Shown here: in pieces, positions 1 through 7,900 of the stretch
Layout: every line of letters begins with the position of its first letter
How positions within the stretch are numbered: position 1 is the first letter of the stretch
DNA from: a virus
Lineage: Duplodnaviria; Heunggongvirae; Uroviricota; Caudoviricetes
DNA: 7,900 nucleotides
IMG/VR virus record: IMGVR_UViG_2778261030_000021
Location: 1-7,900 of that record
Reading direction: 5' to 3' (one strand)
Program-made: the position numbers and the translations under genes
The notes under the pieces: model-generated
What the model saw: the letters and a program-made list of their open reading frames with translations, nothing else
The model's database searches: none
What the model was told of the DNA's origin: nothing

Positions 1-744
1 GGAAGGTTTAATTACCTGCAACGTACCAAAATCACGCTCTTTGTCGTTCTTCTCTGCACGGGGTACGGATAAAAAGCCTTTTGCTTTTTTGTCACCGTCG
101 CCCACAACCAGATCGCTTTCTTCGGTTTCCGTGAAGGTGTCGCCAATCTCGCCCGTCAGCCATGAAAGGATGTCCACATCGGAAAAATCCACGATTTCCT
201 GCGTGGTGCGCGGGTACGCATAGACCGGATACAGCTTAATGCTCACCTCGTTAATCTGCGGGGTGCTGGTCTGTTCGCGTGCCTTACCCTCTTCACCGTG
301 GTTAACGGTCGCACCGCCAGCGGAAACAAGCTGCTTAAACTCGTTGCTGCTGATTTTCTTCACGGTACAGATGCGGCGCATGGTGGATTCATCCGTCAGC
401 ATTCGCATGATTTCGGTGTTCAGTTCGGGGATAACGGTATAACCACCATCAGCGGGAACGCCTGTACTCAATGCGCGGGTTTCACCTGTCAGAATGTAGT
501 GACGTAGTTCGGCGGGGTCAGTGGTCTGGCTGTTTTTGCCTGGTTTACTGCGCTCTTCGTCAGCAACGGCCTCAAGGCGGGAGATGTCTTTATCGAGTGA
601 TTCAGCTTTAGCGCGTAATTCGTCAAATTTTGCGCCCTCAGCATCGTTAAGGCTGCGGTTTTCTTTTTCCGCGTTCTCCAGCATGTCGCGCATCTGATTT
701 TTAATGGCGGTTTTCTGCTGGCGTAATTCGATTATTCTCGGCAT
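1..744 (-). CDS. Major capsid protein, HK97-fold family (N-terminal ~248 codons; 3' end beyond window start)
   Basis: Minus-strand frame is open from ATG 744..742 to position 1 with no stop, so it is absent from the ORF track. Own translation: MPRIIELRQQKTAIKNQMRDMLENAEKENRSLNDAEGAKFDELRAKAESLDKDISRLEAVADEER... then ...GGYTVIPELNTEIMRMLTDESTMRRICTV...INEVSIKLYPVYAYPRTTQEIVDFSDVDILSWLTGEIGDTFTETEESDLVVGDGDKKAKGFLS. An N-terminal coiled coil followed by these motifs matches my recollection of HK97-type capsid proteins. AGGA lies 8 nt upstream of the ATG. Confidence 0.65.
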   Translation of the reverse strand, partial: MPRIIELRQQKTAIKNQMRDMLENAEKENRSLNDAEGAKFDELRAKAESLDKDISRLEAVADEERSKPGKNSQTTDPAELRHYILTGETRALSTGVPADGGYTVIPELNTEIMRMLTDESTMRRICTVKKISSNEFKQLVSAGGATVNHGEEGKAREQTSTPQINEVSIKLYPVYAYPRTTQEIVDFSDVDILSWLTGEIGDTFTETEESDLVVGDGDKKAKGFLSVPRAEKNDKERDFGTLQVIKPS

Positions 745-781
745 AAAAAAAGTCCTGGGGTTAAGTAAGGAACTCCAGGAC
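745..781 (-). promoter_or_regulatory. Hairpin (stem 752-758 / 775-781, GTCCTGG/CCAGGAC) followed on the minus strand by U7 (751..745) and then the capsid ATG; the capsid Shine-Dalgarno AGGA lies inside the 3' arm
   Basis: Directly read inverted repeat plus T-run. The geometry is that of an intrinsic terminator, but it ends 1 nt before the start codon and sequesters the RBS. Confidence 0.45.
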
Positions 782-956
782 GCGGCAAAAACTCAACCGT
801 TTTTCATAAGGAAATCAGCAATCGCACCGATCGTTTTCCCGCCTGGTAATGAATATTGGCGAGAACATTAACAGGCGGAAAAGTGGCCCCAGCGTCCTGG
901 CACCACGGGCGAGAATAATCATGATTCAGTTCGGGTAAAATATGCCGATCCGCTCA

Positions 957-986
957 GTGAACAACGTGGAACAACCACGAACAAAT
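957..986. repeat. Three 10-bp-phased direct repeats: gtGAACAACg / tgGAACAACc / acGAACAAAt
   Basis: Directly read; copies begin at 959, 969 and 979. Lies in the ORF-poor region upstream (minus-strand sense) of the capsid gene. Confidence 0.5.
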
Positions 987-1003
987 AATTTACAAAAAAT
1001 GAC

Positions 1004-1025
1004 AAAAAGCCGGATTTCTCCGGCT
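1004..1025 (-). terminator. Intrinsic terminator after the 74-aa gene (7-bp stem AGCCGGA/TCCGGCT, 4-nt loop, U-rich tail on minus strand)
   Basis: Hairpin 1008-1025 and A-run 1004-1008 on the plus strand give hairpin-then-U on the minus strand, 11 nt downstream of the stop at 1036-1038. Confidence 0.6.
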
Positions 1026-1035
1026 GTATGGGTGC

Positions 1036-1260
1036 TCAGTCCCTGATCCCTTTCAGAAATTCTATCAATGCATCTATCTGTTCAGGATTTACCGCCAGCA
1101 TTTCACCGGATAGAGCACATCTCACAAAACCATGCTGATCCTTTTCAATCAGTGCGCCCGTCTCCAGGAATGCGCGGTAATCATTGATGCTCATCGTCTC
1201 CATGTTGTCAGCATGGTATTTATCACGCTGTTTTAATATCTCATCAAATTTCATCGGCAT
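1036..1260 (-). CDS. Hypothetical acidic protein, 74 aa
   Basis: ATG at 1260 with AGAGGA about 9 nt upstream; own terminator downstream. No family recognised. Confidence 0.5.
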   Translation of the reverse strand: MPMKFDEILKQRDKYHADNMETMSINDYRAFLETGALIEKDQHGFVRCALSGEMLAVNPEQIDALIEFLKGIRD

Positions 1261-1356
1261 TGTTTTTTTCCTCTGTTGTGTCTGTTTGTTTCAGATAGTA
1301 ACTATGCCTGACCGTGACGAAAACCCGGTAATGCGCCATACCGTTTCAACTGGTGC

Positions 1357-1380
1357 AAAAAAAGCCGGATTTCTCCGGCT
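1357..1380 (-). terminator. Intrinsic terminator after the PerC-like gene; near-identical copy of the 1004-1025 terminator
   Basis: Same AGCCGGATTTCTCCGGCT hairpin (1363-1380) followed on the minus strand by U7 (1357-1363). A 24-bp core is shared between 1004-1027 and 1360-1383. Confidence 0.65.
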
Positions 1381-1386
1381 GTTTGA

Positions 1387-1659
1387 TTAGCTGTCCTGGT
1401 AATTGCGCCATATTTCATCACCAGCACCATCTATACCCATTTCGGCATAAGTGCGATCGACTGCCTTTTTCAGGTCTCCGAAATTATCCGGCGGCTCCGG
1501 TGCCCTCTGTGCCTTCCTTGAACATTCCAGCCGTCGCATCGTGATGTGATGCCGTTCCTTGTCTGTCTCCACCAGCTGCATGACTTCACCCCATCGCGCC
1601 GCCGCCCTCCGGTAAAAGCCTTTCGCCTCCAGTTCCTCCGCTATGCGGTCATGTACCAT
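1387..1659 (-). CDS. PerC-family-like small transcriptional activator, 90 aa (start moved to ATG 1659; the track ORF begins further upstream at a non-ATG codon)
   Basis: MVHDRIAEELEAKGFYRRAAARWGEVM... resembles the AEKLExKGLWRRAA signature I recall for PerC/Pch proteins. Strong SD GAGGGGGGG immediately upstream of ATG 1659. Confidence 0.5.
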   Translation of the reverse strand: MVHDRIAEELEAKGFYRRAAARWGEVMQLVETDKERHHITMRRLECSRKAQRAPEPPDNFGDLKKAVDRTYAEMGIDGAGDEIWRNYQDS

Positions 1660-1669
1660 CGTCCCCCCC

Positions 1670-2080
1670 TCAGAACGAAATATCATCACCGTAAGGGTCA
1701 TCGCCTCCCGCTGGTGGCTGATTACCCTGTGTGCCTGTGGTTTTGCGTCTGTTCCCGCCTGGACGTGCCGCGCGGGCACTGATTACGCTGTCTGCGATAA
1801 CCTGCCAGCCCTGCCGCGTTTCTCCGTTCTGTCCGGCCCACTGGCTTACCTGCATCGTGCCGGATACGCTGGCAACATCGCCTTTTTGATGTTTAGCCAG
1901 GAAGTCGGCCTGTTTGCCAAATGCGATGACCGATAACCATAACGTCGCCTGTCCGTCCTGTGCCTGGCTGCATGGCAACGATACCGCCATACGCGCCAGC
2001 GTCATCGGTGTGCCCTTGCTGGTCTGTTTTACCTGCGGGTCGTCCACCAGCCGCCCGTAAGCGGCTATCTGTGCCGTCAT
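1670..2080 (-). CDS. ssb: Single-stranded DNA-binding protein (SSB-like OB fold), 136 aa
   Basis: Pattern GRLVDDPQV...TLWLSVIAFGKQADFLAKHQKGDVASVSGTMQVSQWAGQNGETRQGWQVIADSV aligns by eye with E. coli SSB (G.L..DPE...W..V.FGK.AE...KG..V..G....W.D.G.R), and the acidic tail DDPYGDDISF resembles the SSB C-terminal DDDIPF tip. ATG 2080 with GAGAGGTGG SD; start overlaps the upstream stop (ATGA). Confidence 0.75.
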   Translation of the reverse strand: MTAQIAAYGRLVDDPQVKQTSKGTPMTLARMAVSLPCSQAQDGQATLWLSVIAFGKQADFLAKHQKGDVASVSGTMQVSQWAGQNGETRQGWQVIADSVISARAARPGGNRRKTTGTQGNQPPAGGDDPYGDDISF

Positions 2081-2322
2081 AATTCCACCTCTCCGGTTTT
2101 AACGTTGATGGTTGTTACCTGTTCCGCTTCGGCAATCTCCCGTTCTGTCAGCGTGGCAAAGTTTGCCGCTGCTGTGGTCATGAATGCGCTTATCAGTTCG
2201 GGATGTGCTTTCGCGTATCCTTCCCCGGCGTTGCGGTCGATGATTTTTATCGCCACCCTCAGCCAGTGTTCTGTCAAATCAAGGGCGTGAGATTGTGGTT
2301 TTTTGGCGTGCTTCGTTGTCAC
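2077..2322 (-). CDS. Hypothetical protein, 81 aa (GTG start)
   Basis: Codon at 2322..2320 is GTG with GAGGT about 9 nt upstream; stop overlaps the ssb start. No family recognised. Confidence 0.45.
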   Translation of the reverse strand: MTTKHAKKPQSHALDLTEHWLRVAIKIIDRNAGEGYAKAHPELISAFMTTAAANFATLTEREIAEAEQVTTINVKTGEVEL

Positions 2323-2367
2323 AGGCTTTACCTCACAGCAATAAAATAAAATTTTTGCATTTCAACC

Positions 2368-2597
2368 CTTCACCTGTTCACCTTTTGCAATTTTCCCTTT
2401 TTATTCATGATGTTAAGGGGTGAACAGTTTCACAAAAACTATTCACCAACTGTTCACCACTGTTCACCCTTAAAGCTCAATAAAGAATCAAAAAGGTGAA
2501 CAGTGAATAGTTTGGTGAACAGTTCATAAATAACTGTTCACCCTATAATATACTGATATAAAAGACATTTATTGCAGGCTGAACAGTGGTGAACAGT
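2368..2597. repeat. Iteron array: at least 9 full copies of the octamer TGTTCACC / GGTGAACA in both orientations plus partial copies; putative replication origin (P4 ori/crr type)
   Basis: Directly read: TGTTCACC at 2375, 2451, 2461 and 2536; GGTGAACA at 2419, 2495, 2514 and 2589; partials at 2368, 2441, 2503 and 2579. The array starts 13 bp beyond the primase stop. As I recall, TGTTCACC is the type I iteron bound by P4 alpha protein. Confidence 0.7.
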
Positions 2598-2609
2598 TAT
2601 TCCATAAGT

Positions 2610-4427
2610 TTAATTTTTTCCATCGTCATTTGTGACCGATGCACATGATGGCATCCAGTCTTCTGAATCCTCTGTCAGGGTCACATTTGAACGCAAACCG
2701 TGCTTCGTTTTCCGTTTCATATACTCCCTGCCATATTCCGCCATTGCCCCCGGCATATCTTTACCGAAGCGCGTCAGTGTTACAGGTTTACCGAATCCGT
2801 GTGCCCTCATATATGCCAGATAGGCGTGATAAAGATACCTGCGCGGACTGAACGGAATAATTTCGGCATTACCCACTAACAGACCATCACACATTACCGA
2901 CGACATGAGATAGCCGCAGAAGTCCACCAGCGAATCGCCCTCGCGTTTTATCACCAGAGCTTCTTCTGATTTCTGCTGCTCATACAGCAGGCGTTTAGCT
3001 TCGTCCTGGTCAGAAAAACGAGTAAGCAGGTGGCGAATCACAACCGCCAGCTCTCCTTCTATTTTTTCTGCCAGCATGGGGTCGCGTTCGTTTTCCGGTA
3101 CAACCTCCGAAAAATTGAATATCACCCGACGACGTGAAATCCCCCCGCTGCGGTCACTGAATGACATGGCGTTATTGTTCACCGCCAACACTACCGCCTG
3201 AATGCGTGTTGAGTAGGGGGCTTTATGCTTCGGGTCGATTGCCACCTTGTCACCGCCTGTAATGGCCTTAATTCCTGCGCCATCACCAGCGTAACGGGTC
3301 ATATCCGGCATGATAATCAGCGAAAAGCCAACCACTAACGCGCGTTCCCTGGCATCTTCCAGCGCCTTCATGCTTGCCGATACCGTGTTGGCCTTACCCG
3401 CCAGCATGGTGCAAATCTCCGCCATCACGCTTTTACCACTTCCCCCTGGACCTGTTACCTCAATGAATAACTGCCAGTCGTACCGGTTCGCCAGCACCAT
3501 GAATAATGCAGCCAGTACGCGATCCGCCTTGCGGTCATTCTCAGCCACCGAACGGCGTAACCACTTCCAGAAATTCGGCGCATGTGTTGCCAGCGTTTCC
3601 CCCTCTGCTGGTGGGCTGAAAGGTAATTCACTGGCAATTAACAACCAGTCGTTTTTGTTATGCTCCCGAAAATTACCTGTTCTGGTATCAAATACCCCGT
3701 TACTGAATCCAATCAGGTTACGGGCTGTATTCCCCATTACAGGCAAACTTAACTTCATGGTATCGACCGCCGATTTAATGGCGTTCTGCGAATAGCTGAT
3801 CTCCGCATCAATGAAAATCTGTGCCATAGCTCGCTGTAATTCTTTATCCTGTACTGGCTCCCATACAACGCCGTTGTAATGGTGAACAGTGTCAGAGTCA
3901 GCATGAATCGCCAGTTCACCGCCATAATGTGCCAGGAGAACTTCGCCGCGTTGACTTGCTCCCATCTGGTTAAGCGCCAGTGATGAAGCGTTATCGTCTT
4001 TTACCCGCTCTTTTTTCTTTACAGGCAGTTCAACTACCTTTTTCTTTTCCGCCTGCTCTGCCCGTTCACGTTCCAGATATTCGCGCCAGTTCTCCCGTTT
4101 CTGGCTGTGCATTCCTTCAGGGTAATAATCAGCATCCCTGACACCTGCCGCTGCCAGTTTCTGCCCGATGGTATTAACAAGCCCCGGACGCAATAACCCC
4201 GCCTGGTAGAGACGCACCCGATAGCGTCCGTCCGGTACGATTTGCAGCTTATCCAGTTCGGCAAGTTGTTGTTCTCCAAGCCAGACAGGAGGCACGCTGT
4301 CGCCAGCCAGTCGCCCGTCCTGTTCCTGCCACTGCTTCGCATGTGCCCACGCATCATTACCCGCAAAAATGATGACTTCCGTCATTTTGTCACGCGGCTG
4401 GTGTTTTAAATTTGGCGCTTTTTTCAT
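2610..4427 (-). CDS. Replication primase-helicase of the P4-alpha / D5 (SF3 helicase) family, 605 aa (start moved from track position 4442 to ATG 4427)
   Basis: Walker A TGPGGSGKS within a D5-like region. The track ORF begins at a GTG (4442); the first ATG (4427..4425, MKKAPNLKHQ...) has GGAGAGAG upstream and overlaps the stop of the preceding gene (ATGA). Confidence 0.85.
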   Translation of the reverse strand: MKKAPNLKHQPRDKMTEVIIFAGNDAWAHAKQWQEQDGRLAGDSVPPVWLGEQQLAELDKLQIVPDGRYRVRLYQAGLLRPGLVNTIGQKLAAAGVRDADYYPEGMHSQKRENWREYLERERAEQAEKKKVVELPVKKKERVKDDNASSLALNQMGASQRGEVLLAHYGGELAIHADSDTVHHYNGVVWEPVQDKELQRAMAQIFIDAEISYSQNAIKSAVDTMKLSLPVMGNTARNLIGFSNGVFDTRTGNFREHNKNDWLLIASELPFSPPAEGETLATHAPNFWKWLRRSVAENDRKADRVLAALFMVLANRYDWQLFIEVTGPGGSGKSVMAEICTMLAGKANTVSASMKALEDARERALVVGFSLIIMPDMTRYAGDGAGIKAITGGDKVAIDPKHKAPYSTRIQAVVLAVNNNAMSFSDRSGGISRRRVIFNFSEVVPENERDPMLAEKIEGELAVVIRHLLTRFSDQDEAKRLLYEQQKSEEALVIKREGDSLVDFCGYLMSSVMCDGLLVGNAEIIPFSPRRYLYHAYLAYMRAHGFGKPVTLTRFGKDMPGAMAEYGREYMKRKTKHGLRSNVTLTEDSEDWMPSCASVTNDDGKN

Positions 4428-4723
4428 TTCTGCTCTCTCCACGCGGCAATCATGTTTTTCAGTTCCTGTAGTTTTTTATCAACATCCATACATGACACAT
4501 GGTTATTTCTGGAAAGCGGGATTTCCCGCCTGAATCTGCTAATAAAGATCTCCACGTTCAGCGAACTATGAAATGAATAGCCATCACGAATAAAATACAC
4601 ACGGTCAAACATCAGTTCTTTTACCGTTACTCTGTTACCGTTCTTATCCAGATAAATAGCGCCGGGGATAATTTTGGGGTGTGCATAACCGCTGGCAGTC
4701 AAGCCAGATAAATACGTTCTCAT
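4424..4723 (-). CDS. Hypothetical protein, 99 aa, translationally coupled to the primase
   Basis: ATG 4723; stop TGA overlaps the primase ATG. No family recognised. Confidence 0.55.
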   Translation of the reverse strand: MRTYLSGLTASGYAHPKIIPGAIYLDKNGNRVTVKELMFDRVYFIRDGYSFHSSLNVEIFISRFRREIPLSRNNHVSCMDVDKKLQELKNMIAAWREQK

Positions 4724-4729
4724 GATTAT

Positions 4730-5050
4730 TTATCTCAGATTTGAATCAGTATTCGCTTTCTCTATGGCATTTAATGCATCTGTGGCATTTTCAATGGTGC
4801 ACCGTAACGAAATATCAAACTGCCCAAGCATTGCCAGTAACAAGCCAATATTACCCATGTCAATGCGCATAGCCTTTTCGTCATATTCCTCATTTTCTGA
4901 CGCATGCCACATCAGGCTACCAATTGACGAAACAGCCATTGATATATTGTCAGTAGCCCCATCCGCAGCGGAATAAACCTTTTTAGCAATATCATGCTCA
5001 CAGTTAAAATGCGGATTAATCAGGTACTGGTAATTGGTCATGTCAGGCAT
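4730..5050 (-). CDS. Hypothetical acidic protein, 106 aa
   Basis: ATG 5050..5048 overlaps the end of the upstream small gene. Strongly acidic composition (about 17 D/E against 7 K/R). Confidence 0.55.
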   Translation of the reverse strand: MPDMTNYQYLINPHFNCEHDIAKKVYSAADGATDNISMAVSSIGSLMWHASENEEYDEKAMRIDMGNIGLLLAMLGQFDISLRCTIENATDALNAIEKANTDSNLR

Positions 5051-5246
5051 GGAACACCCCCTGACGAATACGGGCGGCGAATACCATCACGCAGCCATCA
5101 GGAGATTGCTGACGCGCGTCCTGTTCGCTGGTGGCCTCAATGGTAATCACGCGCGGTTGTGCCGTGCTCAGGGCGATAAAACGCCAGATGTATTTATTCA
5201 GGTTGTGCGAGTCCCGCCCTTGCGGGTGTGTGGTATGATTTAACAT
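5043..5246 (-). CDS. Small first gene of the leftward operon, 67 aa (possibly Icd/Kil-like; function uncertain)
   Basis: ATG 5246..5244 with GAGGT 5-6 nt upstream; MLNHTTHPQGRDSHNLNKYIWRFIALSTAQPRVITIEATSEQDARQQSPDGCVMVFAARIRQGVFHA. It is the C-terminal 67 codons of the 341-aa track ORF, which I reject as a whole. The Icd-like guess rests on position only. Confidence 0.5.
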   Translation of the reverse strand: MLNHTTHPQGRDSHNLNKYIWRFIALSTAQPRVITIEATSEQDARQQSPDGCVMVFAARIRQGVFHA

Positions 5247-5342
5247 AGCTACCTCGATATTCTTGCTATCGTTGGTGGTTAGACGCCCGGTTAGTGTTAG
5301 CGCACTGCCGGGTTTCGTCGTTTCTGCACCTTGCATCAACAA

Positions 5343-5396
5343 GGTGTTTAACACCAATTTAAGCCCTGGTGTTAAACACGTCAAGTGTTGAACACT
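5343..5396. promoter_or_regulatory. Three 13-bp palindromic operator-like sites (G/A)GTGTT-N-AACAC(C/T) in the divergent promoter region
   Basis: Directly read: 5343-5355 GGTGTTTAACACC (perfect), 5368-5380 GGTGTTAAACACG (one mismatch), 5384-5396 AGTGTTGAACACT (perfect). The third overlaps a plus-strand -35-like TTGAAC (5388-5393), with a weak -10 CATACT at 5411-5416. Confidence 0.55.
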
Positions 5397-5445
5397 TATT
5401 TTTTTTCCTGCATACTGCATTTGTTTTTTGTAAGGGGTACACAAC

Positions 5446-5625
5446 ATGGCGACAAAAGCAGTAAACGCAAAATCACAAACAGTTGCGGCAAGGGTTCCGC
5501 ATGAAGTTATGAACAATGTTGAGGCGGTAAAAATGCCTGGTGAAAGTACAGGGCAGTTTGTAACAGCAGCATTAAAGCGAGAAGTTGAATACCGCCAGCG
5601 TCGCAAGGCCAAAGAGCAGGAATAA
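5446..5625 (+). CDS. Small DNA-binding protein, probable ribbon-helix-helix fold, 59 aa
   Basis: Below the track's size cut-off. ATG 5446 with AAGGGG 8 nt upstream; MATKAVNAKSQTVAARVPHEVMNNVEAVKMPGESTGQFVTAALKREVEYRQRRKAKEQE. Beta-strand (TVAARVP), helix, Gly turn, helix pattern typical of Arc/CopG-type proteins. Confidence 0.5.
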   Translation: MATKAVNAKSQTVAARVPHEVMNNVEAVKMPGESTGQFVTAALKREVEYRQRRKAKEQE

Positions 5626-5682
5626 CCATCACCAGCGCCGTGGTGTAAGGTATTACGGCGCATTGCTATGCAGGACAACACA

Positions 5683-5856
5683 ATGACCGATAAAGAATTG
5701 ACCAAAACATTATCACCGGCACGGAAAAGACGGCGCAGAAAGATAGAGCATGAATCAGAAAGATTCGCGCCATGTGCTTTTGCCCTTGAGCAATTCCTTA
5801 AAGAGTACAGGGAAAAGCGCTCATTGCAGGTATGGCAACGAACTGAACCAGACTGA
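5683..5856 (+). CDS. Hypothetical Arg-rich small protein, 57 aa
   Basis: ATG 5683 with AGGA 7 nt upstream (the track's longer ORF starts at 5668). Contains ARKRRRRK; rare AGA/AGG/CGG codons. Confidence 0.4.
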   Translation: MTDKELTKTLSPARKRRRRKIEHESERFAPCAFALEQFLKEYREKRSLQVWQRTEPD

Positions 5857-5950
5857 TAGCATTGCCCACCAGCCTGATAGCGACTATCATTGCCGTTCTT
5901 ATGTTTGGGATCACACACACAAACGGCGCAGCGGGTTATCTGTTCAGAAA

Positions 5951-5979
5951 GGCGGCTCCATTTCGGGGCCGCTTTTTTT
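5951..5979 (+). terminator. Intrinsic terminator of the plus-strand two-gene unit
   Basis: Stem 5952-5959 GCGGCTCC pairs with 5965-5972 GGGGCCGC (one G-U), 5-nt loop, then T7 at 5973-5979. Confidence 0.7.
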
Positions 5980-6120
5980 ATTCCTGAAAAACCCCAATTT
6001 TGTTGTTTTTCAGTTTCACCAGGGCGAACGAATCCCCGCCCACGTTCGGGCGCATATTCAATCTTCATGGTTATATCTCTGTATTAGTGGATGTGTGGCG
6101 GCTGCGTGCCGCCAGCGTGA

Positions 6121-6309
6121 TTAATGAACTGCCTTGCAGCTATCCTTCCAGGCCAGAACCTCGGATAAAGACCAGCCAACGGAACGACCGCCAAGTTTAC
6201 GACGTGATGGGAATTGTCCGGCCTTTTCCAGGCGGTAGCGGCATGAGCGGCTAAGGCCTGTTAGCTTTTCGCATTCTTTTTCACGTATAAACCGATCAGT
6301 GCTTAACAC
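6121..6309 (-). CDS. alpA: AlpA-family phage transcriptional regulator / excisionase-like HTH protein, 62 aa (GTG start)
   Basis: EKLTGLSRSCRYRLEKAGQFPSRRKLGGRSVGWSLSEVLAW matches the AlpA signature I recall (TG.SRST.Y......FP....LG.R.V.W...E...W). GTG at 6309..6307 with AAGGGG 5 nt upstream; no in-frame ATG is available. Confidence 0.8.
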   Translation of the reverse strand: MLSTDRFIREKECEKLTGLSRSCRYRLEKAGQFPSRRKLGGRSVGWSLSEVLAWKDSCKAVH

Positions 6310-6590
6310 TATTGCCCCTTTCGTTTCTTAAAGAGTTATTTCGTGTTCTATTGCGTTGGGATGTGTCTGATTGTGTCAGGATGATTCAGAGTTGGCAAAT
6401 GTTGAGGACGTATGGTTTACAGAAAGAGGAATAATCAGGATAAAATCATTTAAATTCATGTTAATACAAAGGCATAAAATATTGTTTCATGCCTTTTTTC
6501 TCGCTATTTAAAGAGTGATTCGCTAGTGTATAAAAAACCAGTAACACATTAAAAATCAGCCACTTATAAATCTGTACACTTTTTCGCCTC

Positions 6591-6640
6591 TTGTTCGTAG
6601 TTGTTCCGCATTGTTGCTCATTGTTGCACGTTGTATCTGT
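6591..6640. repeat. Five 10-bp-phased direct repeats beginning TTGTT (TTGTTCGTAG / TTGTTCCGCA / TTGTTGCTCA / TTGTTGCACG / TTGTATCTGT)
   Basis: Directly read, exact 10-bp register, between the integrase stop and the alpA upstream region. Confidence 0.5.
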
Positions 6641-6649
6641 TCGCATATC

Positions 6650-6665
6650 CAGTATGCGCATACTG
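6650..6665. repeat. Perfect 16-bp palindrome CAGTATGCGCATACTG
   Basis: Directly read. Lies 18 bp beyond the integrase stop and is flanked by A/T runs. Confidence 0.55.
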
Positions 6666-6682
6666 AAAAAATACGAAAAAAA

Positions 6683-7900
6683 TTATTTTCTTCTGGCTAC
6701 TGGTAGCGTGGTTACGTTTTCATGTGTTCCCGCCAGTATCCCTAACCGCTCCATCCACATATCCAGCGCATTGCGTTTAGCATCCAGATAACGGGAATGA
6801 TTATAAACTCGCTGCATTCCTGGCATCTGGTGGCCTGTAAGCTGCTCCACGACATGCGGATCAACGCCTAAATCGTTCAGCATGGTTGTAAAGGTGCGCC
6901 GGATGTCATGCAGTGACCAGTGAGGGTGATTAAGCCTCCTGTGCGCTAATCTTCCATACTGCGATACGCTGGCCTCCTGTTTCACTGCCCCCAGCAATAA
7001 GCCCGTGTGCCTGTTCTGCTCCACCAGCTGCGTGACGAACGGCAGGATCGCTTCCGGTATGGGCCGGAATATTGCGACCTTCGTTTTGCTGTGCTCCTTC
7101 GGAACGGTCCATAGCATTTCCGTAAAATCCCACTCCCCGATCTCTGATAACCTCAGTTCTACCGTTCTGGCTCCGAAGACAATCAGGAGGCGGATTAACG
7201 CGACGTAGTAAGGGGAAAATATTTTTTTATCCAGCGCCTGCAATAACTCGCCCAGTTCTTTGGTGCTTAAGACACGTTCGCTTATATCCGGTTTTTTCCC
7301 AACGTCCGCCACGTTCAGATCGTCCAGAACGTTGCTGATTGCATAGCGCCGCCTACGGCAGAACTTAAGCGCCTGTTTGCACGCCTGTAGCACGAATCCG
7401 GCAGTAACAGGCGTTCGCTTTGCCACCTGGTCAAAACAGGCCAGCCAGTGCCGTAGCTCGCATTTATCCAGCGGCATAGCACCAATCTGCTGTATTACGT
7501 GATTATTAAGTCGCCTTTTCAGGGCGATATAATCCACGCGGTTTTCCTTTACGTAAGACTCAAGCCAGTAGGTGAGCGCATCGCCAACCGTTACGGGCTT
7601 TAACGCTTCCTGTACGGTGTAATTCATCTCATGACGTGGATTTTTCCCCTCAGCCAGCCATGCGCGGCACTGGGCGGCTTTTTCCCTGGCTGCTTTCAGA
7701 CTCAGATCAGGATAATTTCCCAGCTTAATACGTTCCGGTCGTGTCTCTCTTCCCGTTCCTGCCCTGTAAGTGAAATACCAGGTTAATTTCCCTGATGTTA
7801 AATATTTCACGCTCAGATTTCCGCCATCGCTATAAAACGTGTTTTTCTCCGCTGGCTTACCATGAAGTTTCCTTAGCAATGTGTCGCTCAGTTTGTTCAT
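6683..7900 (-). CDS. int: Tyrosine recombinase / phage integrase (P4-type), 405 aa
   Basis: 405-aa ORF starting with ATG exactly at the window edge (the true start could lie upstream). Integrase-like C-terminal region including HDIRRTFTT and the tail ...MQRVYNHSRYLDAKRNALDMW with candidate catalytic Tyr. Confidence 0.88.
   Translation of the reverse strand: MNKLSDTLLRKLHGKPAEKNTFYSDGGNLSVKYLTSGKLTWYFTYRAGTGRETRPERIKLGNYPDLSLKAAREKAAQCRAWLAEGKNPRHEMNYTVQEALKPVTVGDALTYWLESYVKENRVDYIALKRRLNNHVIQQIGAMPLDKCELRHWLACFDQVAKRTPVTAGFVLQACKQALKFCRRRRYAISNVLDDLNVADVGKKPDISERVLSTKELGELLQALDKKIFSPYYVALIRLLIVFGARTVELRLSEIGEWDFTEMLWTVPKEHSKTKVAIFRPIPEAILPFVTQLVEQNRHTGLLLGAVKQEASVSQYGRLAHRRLNHPHWSLHDIRRTFTTMLNDLGVDPHVVEQLTGHQMPGMQRVYNHSRYLDAKRNALDMWMERLGILAGTHENVTTLPVARRK

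Follow-up and report, generated by a model that had tools for sequence, protein, structure and literature searches.

The stretch of DNA analysed here, which we call the window, comprises positions 1 to 7,900 of the IMG/VR virus record IMGVR_UViG_2778261030_000021 and is 100% identical to a chromosomal island of Escherichia coli CFSAN027343. Between its alpA gene and an icd-like gene lies a plus-strand unit of two short open reading frames (ORFs), gene 1 and gene 2, which is followed by an intrinsic terminator and preceded by three operator-like palindromes and two divergent predicted promoters (Table 1). All of the other annotated genes of the island are on the minus strand, opposed to genes 1 and 2, and the annotated order is int, alpA, plus-strand unit, icd-like gene, DUF4222, D5-type primase, SSB and PerC. 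About one in four complete E. coli genomes carries the module, the 801-bp region around the unit having matches in 1291 of 5426. A first-pass annotation, made from the letters of the window, had pointed out the two ORFs, their Shine-Dalgarno sequences and the terminator, all of which are borne out in the sequence and in relatives; it had missed the satellite context, the operators, the divergent promoters and the antisense nesting of the whole unit within a stop-free frame. With these added, we are moderately confident that the unit serves as a "quiescence" counter-operon of an E. coli phage satellite, lying antisense in an eta-like frame.

Table 1. Coordinates of the plus-strand unit, its control elements and the surrounding features (position 1 is the first nucleotide of the window).
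Feature	Position	Strand	Basis and details
Gene 1	5446-5625	plus	ATG to TAA, 59 aa; Shine-Dalgarno AAGGGG 5432-5437
Gene 2	5683-5856	plus	ATG to TGA, 57 aa; Shine-Dalgarno AGGA 5672-5675
Operator-like palindromes, 11 bp, GTGTTNAACAC	O1 5344-5354; O2 5369-5379; O3 5385-5395		direct/inverted repeat scan
Predicted internal promoter P(-) for the icd-like and replication genes	5356-5384	minus	consensus scan 9/12; -35 TTGACG 5384-5379, -10 TAAATT 5361-5356
Candidate promoter P(+) for genes 1 and 2	5388-5416	plus	by eye, 8/12 consensus; -35 TTGAAC 5388-5393, -10 CATACT 5411-5416
Conserved stem-loop in the gene 1-gene 2 spacer	5635-5661	plus	consensus fold, 12 loci
Invariant box CATTGCCCACCAGCC	5860-5874		directly adjoins the gene 2 stop on its 3' side
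Intrinsic terminator of the plus-strand unit	5951-5979	plus	RNA fold; hairpin and T-run in relatives
Stop-free frame of 341 codons, eta-like candidate leader	5043-6068	minus	ORF list, 14 E. coli loci
Nested icd-like gene, 67 aa	5043-5246	minus	NF033153; ATG 5246, Shine-Dalgarno GAGG
Candidate cis-antisense small RNA	5246-5319	plus	opposite the icd Shine-Dalgarno and start codon
alpA, AlpA/Vis-family activator	6121-6309	minus	PF05930, E 5e-18
Integrase	6683-7900	minus	annotation of identical RefSeq locus / Pfam
D5-type primase	2610-4442	minus	annotation of identical RefSeq locus / Pfam
PerC-family regulator	1387-1779	minus	PF06069, E 1e-42

Since the window contains 96 ORFs of at least 30 aa, frames of this size are common by chance and the case for genes 1 and 2 has to be made by comparison. 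The order, the frame and the 57-nt spacer of the gene pair are kept in all 17 of the E. coli/Shigella loci examined. An in-frame ATG at 5668 would lengthen gene 2 to 62 aa, but the relatives have no conserved ATG there, and the start at 5683 proposed in the first-pass annotation (57 aa) is thus upheld. The stem-loop in the spacer has nine base pairs with no compensatory double changes in the consensus fold of 12 loci; one of its G-U pairs, found in 10 of the 12, favours a plus-strand RNA. As for the terminator, its stem (5952-5959 with 5965-5972) has eight pairs, seven of them G-C, and is followed by seven T at 5973-5979. The hairpin was seen in the RNA fold of 5857-5990 (z = -2.9 for the whole stretch), and relatives have at this position either the same hairpin or a substitute hairpin with a T-run; our consensus terminator scan of the window did not list it. 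On the minus strand, the same nucleotides are codons of the long ORF and are read through.

The box CATTGCCCACCAGCC that follows the gene 2 stop occurs once in the window. Of 11 aligned loci, 10 have it unaltered and locus L006 has a single substitution, while its flanks vary. In some alleles it falls within an extended gene 2 ORF. A six-nucleotide complementarity between this box and the icd leader (UGGUGG / CCACCA) was dropped as too short to tell from chance, and an Rfam scan found no match inside 5446-5979.

The product of gene 1 has a ribbon-helix-helix (RHH) fold. It passes NCBIfam NF041551, the YlcI/YnfO family, with 59.7 bits against a cut-off of 30 (E 2.1e-16), the match spanning residues 9-50 and the full 42-position profile; it also matches phrog_949 (E 5e-22), and RefSeq annotates it under the YlcI/YnfO family name. 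The AlphaFold2 model, built with 30 homologues and having a predicted local distance difference test score (pLDDT) of 81, shows an extended N-terminal segment and two helices, which is the strand-helix-helix arrangement of about 45 residues typical of RHH proteins. When this model was compared with the PDB by Foldseek the best E value was 6.4, and the PDB sequence profiles gave nothing meaningful for either gene 1 or gene 2. Pfam DUF3950 (PF13132) has no match to the gene 1 protein at E <= 1; the alleles of L014 and L027 do pass it, with 28.3 and 29.9 bits against a gathering threshold of 25. Homologues occur in Escherichia, Salmonella, Klebsiella, Pectobacterium, Serratia, Rouxiella, Proteus and Xenorhabdus, and in L003 and L004 an Arc-like RHH protein takes the place of gene 1; the unit of the O157:H7 strains EDL933 and Sakai is of the L003 type. 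Between alleles, gene 1 has 62/47/105 substitutions at plus-strand codon positions 1/2/3, as would be typical of a plus-strand coding sequence. The proteins that give the family its name, YlcI (DLP12) and YnfO (Qin), come from E. coli K-12 prophages and belong to NF041551 as gene 1 does; their genes lie in lambdoid prophages and are not known to stand between an alpA and an icd. The named family comes without a functional description in the literature that we searched, where we found no functional study of YlcI, YnfO or DUF3950, nor of an RHH protein in the phage-inducible chromosomal islands (PICIs).

The three palindromes, which correspond to repeat family D1 and the inverted pair I2 of our repeat scan, are distributed over both promoters: O1 covers the predicted transcription start of P(-), O2 occupies its spacer, a copy overlaps its -35 element, and the -35 of P(+) lies inside O3. 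This arrangement is not peculiar to the window. A TTGAC/TTGAA hexamer recurs beside the middle operator in other alleles, and its 17-nt spacing to the -10 recurs in the two loci that were read through, L006 and L008; the other alleles also have TATACT or TATATT as the -10 at the place of P(+), with the third operator copy directly downstream.

It is the comparison of 25 related loci from five named genera that ties gene 1 to these sites. RHH proteins read DNA with the strand, which in gene 1 is predicted to be formed by residues 10-18, and the repeated motif changes whenever these residues change; its position relative to the promoters is fixed across alleles, and 11 motif classes were counted. 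Thus SQTVAARVP goes with GTGTTNAACAC (E. coli; identical protein and sites in Edwardsiella hoshinae), SQSVTARIA with GTGTAAGACAC (E. coli, including L006), SQMTTVRIP with GTGTATTTCAC and SQLTTVRVP with GTGTGTTTCA (both E. coli), SQQLNARFP with GGTATTCAC (E. coli/Shigella), SAKKNIRFP with TGTGCGCACA (E. coli), S(K/R)KLEARVP with GTGTCAGCCAC (Xenorhabdus and Pectobacterium) and SAQKKIRFP with GGTG(N7)CAC (Klebsiella), and the Arc-like RHH alleles of L003 and L004 go with GGTAATTACC or GTGTAATG. This constitutes strong comparative evidence that gene 1 encodes the protein that would bind the three operator sites. Given such co-variation, gene 1 is most likely an operator-binding repressor and autoregulator; as both promoters carry operators, it would act as a repressor of the icd/replication promoter and control its own expression. 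The first-pass annotation had suggested, among other things, a repressor/antirepressor pair, and it is the repressor half of that suggestion that the co-variation of operator and gene 1 allele sustains. In the Edwardsiella hoshinae locus (L015, 2300-2700), 58 of the 59 residues of gene 1 are identical and the three operators hardly differ from those of the window, but the DNA 3' of gene 1 differs and lacks gene 2, which suggests that the repressor/operator cassette was recently exchanged between genera.

The entire plus-strand unit is embedded in the long minus-strand frame. This frame opens 53 nt beyond the stop codon of alpA, passes in antisense orientation across gene 2, the spacer, gene 1 and the region of the promoters and operators, and has the icd-like gene as its last part. 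The frame was open for 291-628 codons in all 14 of the E. coli loci first examined, and it stays open with other gene 1 alleles and with an Ash-type instead of an Icd-type downstream gene. In stretches of 11 loci that are without a plus-strand gene, we counted 11 stops in the long frame versus 146 and 120 in the other minus frames. A simulation that preserved the gene 1 and gene 2 proteins, and the dinucleotide content elsewhere, led to an expectation of 3.2-10.4 stops, whereas all seven alleles have none; P(0) ranges among them from <0.0005 to 0.03. The wobble positions of the long frame coincide with those of genes 1 and 2, which allows the two strands to change at shared sites. In the parts without a plus-strand gene, the long frame has substitutions in the proportion 39/30/36, with no wobble excess, and its first 237 residues have no family match; selection therefore appears, from these comparisons, to act only on keeping the frame open. 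In L012-L014 the Shine-Dalgarno sequence AAGGGGAG (GGGGGGG in L004) stands 3 nt ahead of the ATG of the long frame, no more than ~25 nt short of the alpA stop. In the window, the interval from the alpA stop to the start of the long frame contains a G+C-rich hairpin without a U-run, GGCGGC ACGCA GCCGCC (6097-6118, minus strand).

The nested icd-like gene is in frame with the long ORF. Its family, NF033153 (phage_ICD_like), is matched with 64.6 bits against a cut-off of 25 (E 6e-18), and only by residues 293-336 of the long ORF; in L004 and L008 gene callers give the 67-aa form. By analogy with P4, this gene could be a kil-like short form expressed from the predicted P(-). With the 67-aa form, whose ATG is at 5246, there remains a 5' leader of about 100 nt that is conserved and structured. 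The start chosen by RefSeq for the Icd-like gene, 5354 (104 aa), is upstream of where P(-) transcription is predicted to begin, and the NCBI Prokaryotic Genome Annotation Pipeline (PGAP) labels 5627-6068 on the minus strand a pseudogene fragment of an "Icd-like" protein.

An open frame of 341 codons is far beyond chance length, and one might consider that only the minus strand codes, for a real Icd-like protein of 341 aa of which both plus-strand ORFs are mere shadows; the treatment by PGAP of the upstream part as an "Icd-like" fragment in related genomes would agree with this. We find the idea scarcely credible. Gene 1 belongs to an independent curated family that is also present in lambdoid prophages, it shows the plus-frame pattern of substitutions (position 3 > 1 > 2) and it co-varies with the operators, whereas the upstream 237 residues of the supposed protein are without codon-level constraint as well as without family, and the Icd domain is confined to the last 44 residues.

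Gene 2 is a more difficult case. Its product matches only phrog_21027 (E 1.6e-15), and its homologues make up 36 clusters among 5.8 billion proteins, essentially all from E. coli/Shigella. The protein has the core ERFAPCAFALEQFLKEY, and in the alignment of the family the core ER(F/Y)xPCxFALExFLK is conserved, while the ends vary and the indels keep the frame. AlphaFold2 predicts a disordered basic N-terminus and one long helix (helix pLDDT 92); a bZIP-like reading of the protein was considered and dropped. PGAP annotates gene 2 in L030 and L031. Searches for matches in Pfam, NCBIfam, PADLOC and PDB families found none, a tblastn search of 50,697 phage records had no match either, and a pattern search for related loci produced 513 matches of which none was confirmed by tblastn.

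We consider it likely that gene 2 is translated, the alternative being that it is non-coding, a by-product of the stop-free minus frame; the gene 1 transcript would then act through its 3' part, as an RNA antisense to the alpA-to-icd read-through transcript. A number of observations would fit such an RNA: the wobble positions of the two strands being in register, the 26/25/42 substitutions at gene 2 codon positions 1/2/3 suit either strand; the comparison of codon positions 1 and 2 ends in a tie, 21 vs 21; the RefSeq annotation of this genome omits gene 2; the family is tiny, with nine representatives found by profile search among 1.84 billion proteins; and the adjoining hairpin and box CATTGCCCACCAGCC are conserved as nucleotides and not as codons. 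On the other hand, in the ribosome-binding region of gene 2 the AGG and the ATG are invariant while the eight bases between them vary freely, which is the signature of a ribosome-binding site. As the minus frame shows no excess at its wobble positions elsewhere (39/30/36), the periodicity within gene 2 is best put on the plus strand. Moreover, the diverged members P0112 and P0114 have retained both the reading frame and the core motif despite many flanking changes, and in L030 the place of gene 2 is taken by a different ORF of 69 aa, with the same spacer before it and the same box after it. The similarity of the window to the L030 allele (38 in the plus frame, 29 in the minus frame, 21-32 in controls) is only suggestive of homology between the two ORFs, and a wobble-transversion test of the coding strand had only seven usable sites. 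On balance we regard a non-coding gene 2 as rather unlikely, although it is the alternative that we take most seriously.

If gene 2 is indeed translated, what could its product do? The first-pass annotation had considered that the pair might be a small toxin-antitoxin-like module. The RHH protein would then be the antitoxin and the 57-aa protein the toxin, and the RHH-first order, the small sizes and the autoregulatory operator upstream do resemble type II loci. However, 12 loci from Edwardsiella, Pectobacterium, Xenorhabdus and Klebsiella that were found through gene 1 have no gene 2 ORF after it, and gene 2 is constant while the gene 1 alleles swap, including the unrelated Arc-like ones; both facts argue against a toxin-antitoxin pair. 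Nor does gene 2 belong to any of the toxin or defence families searched, its predicted structure being one helix with a disordered tail; the two genes are not coupled, being 57 nt apart with a structured spacer between them, and the operators lie on the promoter of a different, divergent operon. We thus hold a toxin-antitoxin module to be very improbable. The constancy of gene 2 across gene 1 alleles and its absence elsewhere argue, furthermore, against its being a specificity partner of the repressor.

The first-pass annotation had likewise mentioned an RNA-binding antiterminator. In this reading gene 2 would be an arginine-rich regulator, N-like or Tat-like, that binds the spacer hairpin or the read-through RNA and controls termination. 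The ARKRRRRK run does lie in a disordered N-terminal segment that is followed by a helix, the conserved hairpin is directly upstream of gene 2, and by analogy with P4 one would expect termination control at this locus. Yet the N-terminal arginine run is not kept in the diverged members P0112 and P0114, and the L030 allele has none; the hairpin, besides its lack of covariation, has by eye no GNRA-type loop like that of boxB; and gene 2 has no homology to N, Nun or Q. Such a regulator appears improbable to us, if less so than a toxin. What the distribution of gene 2 does suggest is that it is probably an accessory limited to the E. coli lineage; that its product binds nucleic acid or a regulator would be a guess.

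For the counter-operon as a whole, the following mechanism can be proposed. In the quiescent state P(+) would make the RHH repressor together with the co-transcribed gene 2 protein. The repressor, on its three GTGTTNAACAC operators, would shut P(-) and limit its own promoter, and the terminator would end the plus-strand transcript ahead of alpA. Once a helper phage turns on alpA (AlpA activation has been demonstrated for related PICIs; PMC6092414), transcription from the alpA promoter would cross the unit in the opposite direction, and ribosomes on the long frame would, if the analogy with P4 holds, keep Rho off the transcript so that transcription gets to the replication genes. Because the plus-strand and the alpA-driven transcription converge and overlap, AlpA induction should silence the repressor: convergent transcription would lower its synthesis and the locus would behave as a switch. 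Of all this, the sequences themselves show the ORFs, the family and fold of gene 1, the co-variation of the operators with its alleles, the stop-free frame and the synteny. We infer the transcript crossing, the exclusion of Rho and the lowered repressor synthesis from the geometry of the locus and from the P4 analogy, and the DNA binding, the repression, the translation of either strand and the switch behaviour from sequence comparison.

A number of points weigh against this mechanism. P(+) scores below the threshold of our consensus scan, and in Xenorhabdus and Pectobacterium there are loci whose long frame is broken off at 90-128 codons. The tied codon positions and the coincident wobble positions mean that periodicity alone cannot place gene 2 on the plus strand, and most of the E. 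coli loci were found via gene 2 proteins, so that the sample is biased to intact ORFs. The absence of gene 2 from other genera indicates that it is not needed for the core mechanism. Finally, AlpA-dependent induction is sufficient in EcCICFT073 (PMC6092414), and a repressor may therefore only fine-tune the system.

With regard to the element itself, its gene content indicates that the window is a capsid-forming PICI of E. coli, P4-like in its regulatory layout. The gene set that defines capsid-forming PICIs has been described (10.1101/2022.09.08.507074), and here int, alpA and the primase-replicase are co-directional; beyond PerC, the identical RefSeq locus encodes the element's own capsid, protease, portal, head-closure and connector proteins and an HNH protein (RefSeq annotation, Pfam). 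No tail or lysis genes are found within the 18.8 kb of that locus looked at. The alpA gene is upstream of the long ORF and convergent with genes 1 and 2; AlpA is the activator of Gram-negative PICIs (PMC6092414). The satellite also carries a PerC-family regulator, and a PICI-borne PerC homologue has been reported as silencing the LEE (locus of enterocyte effacement) pathogenicity island (PMC11773190). Directly downstream of the primase gene (2424-2537) there is a long imperfect repeat/palindrome with GTTCACC-like words, which drew spurious microRNA-family matches and probably represents the iterons of the satellite replication origin.

Besides the protein repressor, the locus may have an RNA layer. 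Opposite the Shine-Dalgarno sequence and start codon of icd, the plus strand has a candidate small RNA with an extended -10-like sequence (TGGTATGAT, 5231-5239), two hairpins and a U-rich tail. In a comparison of 14 loci, from four named genera and one unclassified Enterobacteriaceae metagenome-assembled genome, seven of the 14 pairs of the terminal hairpin have compensatory double changes, and the hairpin contains many G-U pairs, which fit only a plus-strand RNA. Equivalents opposite icd or ash exist in L003, L004, L006, L008, L013, L015-L020, L026 and L030. The nearest known RNA is SymR, which is matched over its full length, in every case below the gathering score (E 0.036 in the window, 0.0029 in L006 and 0.011 in L012). 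Like SymR, the candidate is roughly 75 nt long, is encoded across from the ribosome-binding site of a small protein that inhibits growth, and has two hairpins of which the second is terminator-like; it differs in its score (28-36 bits vs a gathering score of 61) and in its target, icd or ash and not symE.

The Ash-type relatives have RNA elements of another sort, the P4-type isrK, which is seqA-like, and C4, which is CI-like, being carried inside the Ash ORF (L006 1537-1725, L010 1702-1900, L011 1648-1846, minus strand), and in L010 and L011 there is also a c4-a1b1 RNA just below its gathering score. As L006, L010 and L011 have the RHH gene and gene 2 too, RNA-based and protein-based control would therefore seem to coexist in the same elements. 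For the window, C4, isrK and c4-a1b1 yielded no match at E <= 1.

As vehicles of gene transfer, Gram-negative and capsid-forming PICIs are widespread, and whether the Gram-negative ones have a global repressor "is unclear" (PMC6092414); the PICI literature that we searched names AlpA as the activator and does not mention the plus-strand unit. The locus described here offers a concrete candidate for this repressor, and its mapped candidate operators, along with the natural specificity variants, make the question of its existence directly testable. A more ambitious version of our interpretation is that gene 1 is the sought repressor of Gram-negative PICIs, that its operon is double-coded, with both strands translated over ~0.35 kb and in-phase wobble, and that convergent transcription yields a bistable switch between quiescence and induction of the satellite, with a SymR-like antisense RNA on icd as a third layer on top; this we put forward tentatively, as a possibility with less in its favour than the counter-operon itself. 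The unit would also illustrate, in a clean natural case, how a regulatory operon can lie antisense within a frame that selection does no more than keep open, which is of relevance both to the origin of overlapping reading frames and to the use of transcription-translation coupling by satellites to escape termination. It is instructive for genome annotation as well, the frame being labelled an "Icd-like pseudogene" by PGAP and gene 2 being left out in this genome.

How does this compare with what is known of other systems? In P4 (PLL-vis-eta/kil-PLE-cI), eta is a long ORF that is translationally coupled to the alpA homologue vis and has a constitutive internal promoter, Kil is its nested short form, and the translation of eta prevents termination, so that late transcription reads through (PMC10111431). 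We located such a frame at 8168-8812 of P4, where it overlaps the 3' end of vis. The window has the same layout: directly downstream of an AlpA/Vis-family gene there is a long ORF with a predicted internal promoter (5384-5356) and an in-frame nested short gene for a presumed growth-inhibiting protein. It differs in that the nested gene is Icd-like rather than Kil/Ash, in that the long frame is about 130 codons longer, and in that the P4 record annotates no opposite-strand repressor operon with operators, whereas the frame in the window houses one. The CI/C4 type of immunity RNA is, as noted, a feature of the Ash-type relatives and not of the window.

The Stl/Rpr repressors of the Gram-positive PICIs, the Staphylococcus aureus pathogenicity islands (SaPIs), are encoded divergently from the replication operon, with the operators in the shared intergenic region (PMC6092414). 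Gene 1 too is divergent from the replication operon, with operators between; it is, however, downstream of alpA and convergent with it, and not next to int. The fold is likewise unrelated, since gene 1 encodes an RHH protein of 59 aa and the Stl proteins are much larger helix-turn-helix proteins.

The immI regions of P22 and P1 furnish a third parallel. In P22, the small RHH repressors Arc and Mnt act on overlapping/divergent promoters and there is a sar antisense RNA; in P1 immI (c4 RNA-icd-ant), icd is the first, translation-controlled gene of the operon. The window resembles these in its small RHH repressor, its overlapping/divergent promoters and its candidate antisense RNA at the first gene, icd. 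Similarity to Arc itself is below threshold and is seen in the L003 allele only (PF03869, E 0.038); furthermore, the window has no ant gene and belongs to a satellite, not a phage. No nesting antisense to a translated frame is known for immI. Although the nested eta/kil logic is already known, a protein repressor operon with allele-specific operators that is nested antisense within such a frame appears to be new.

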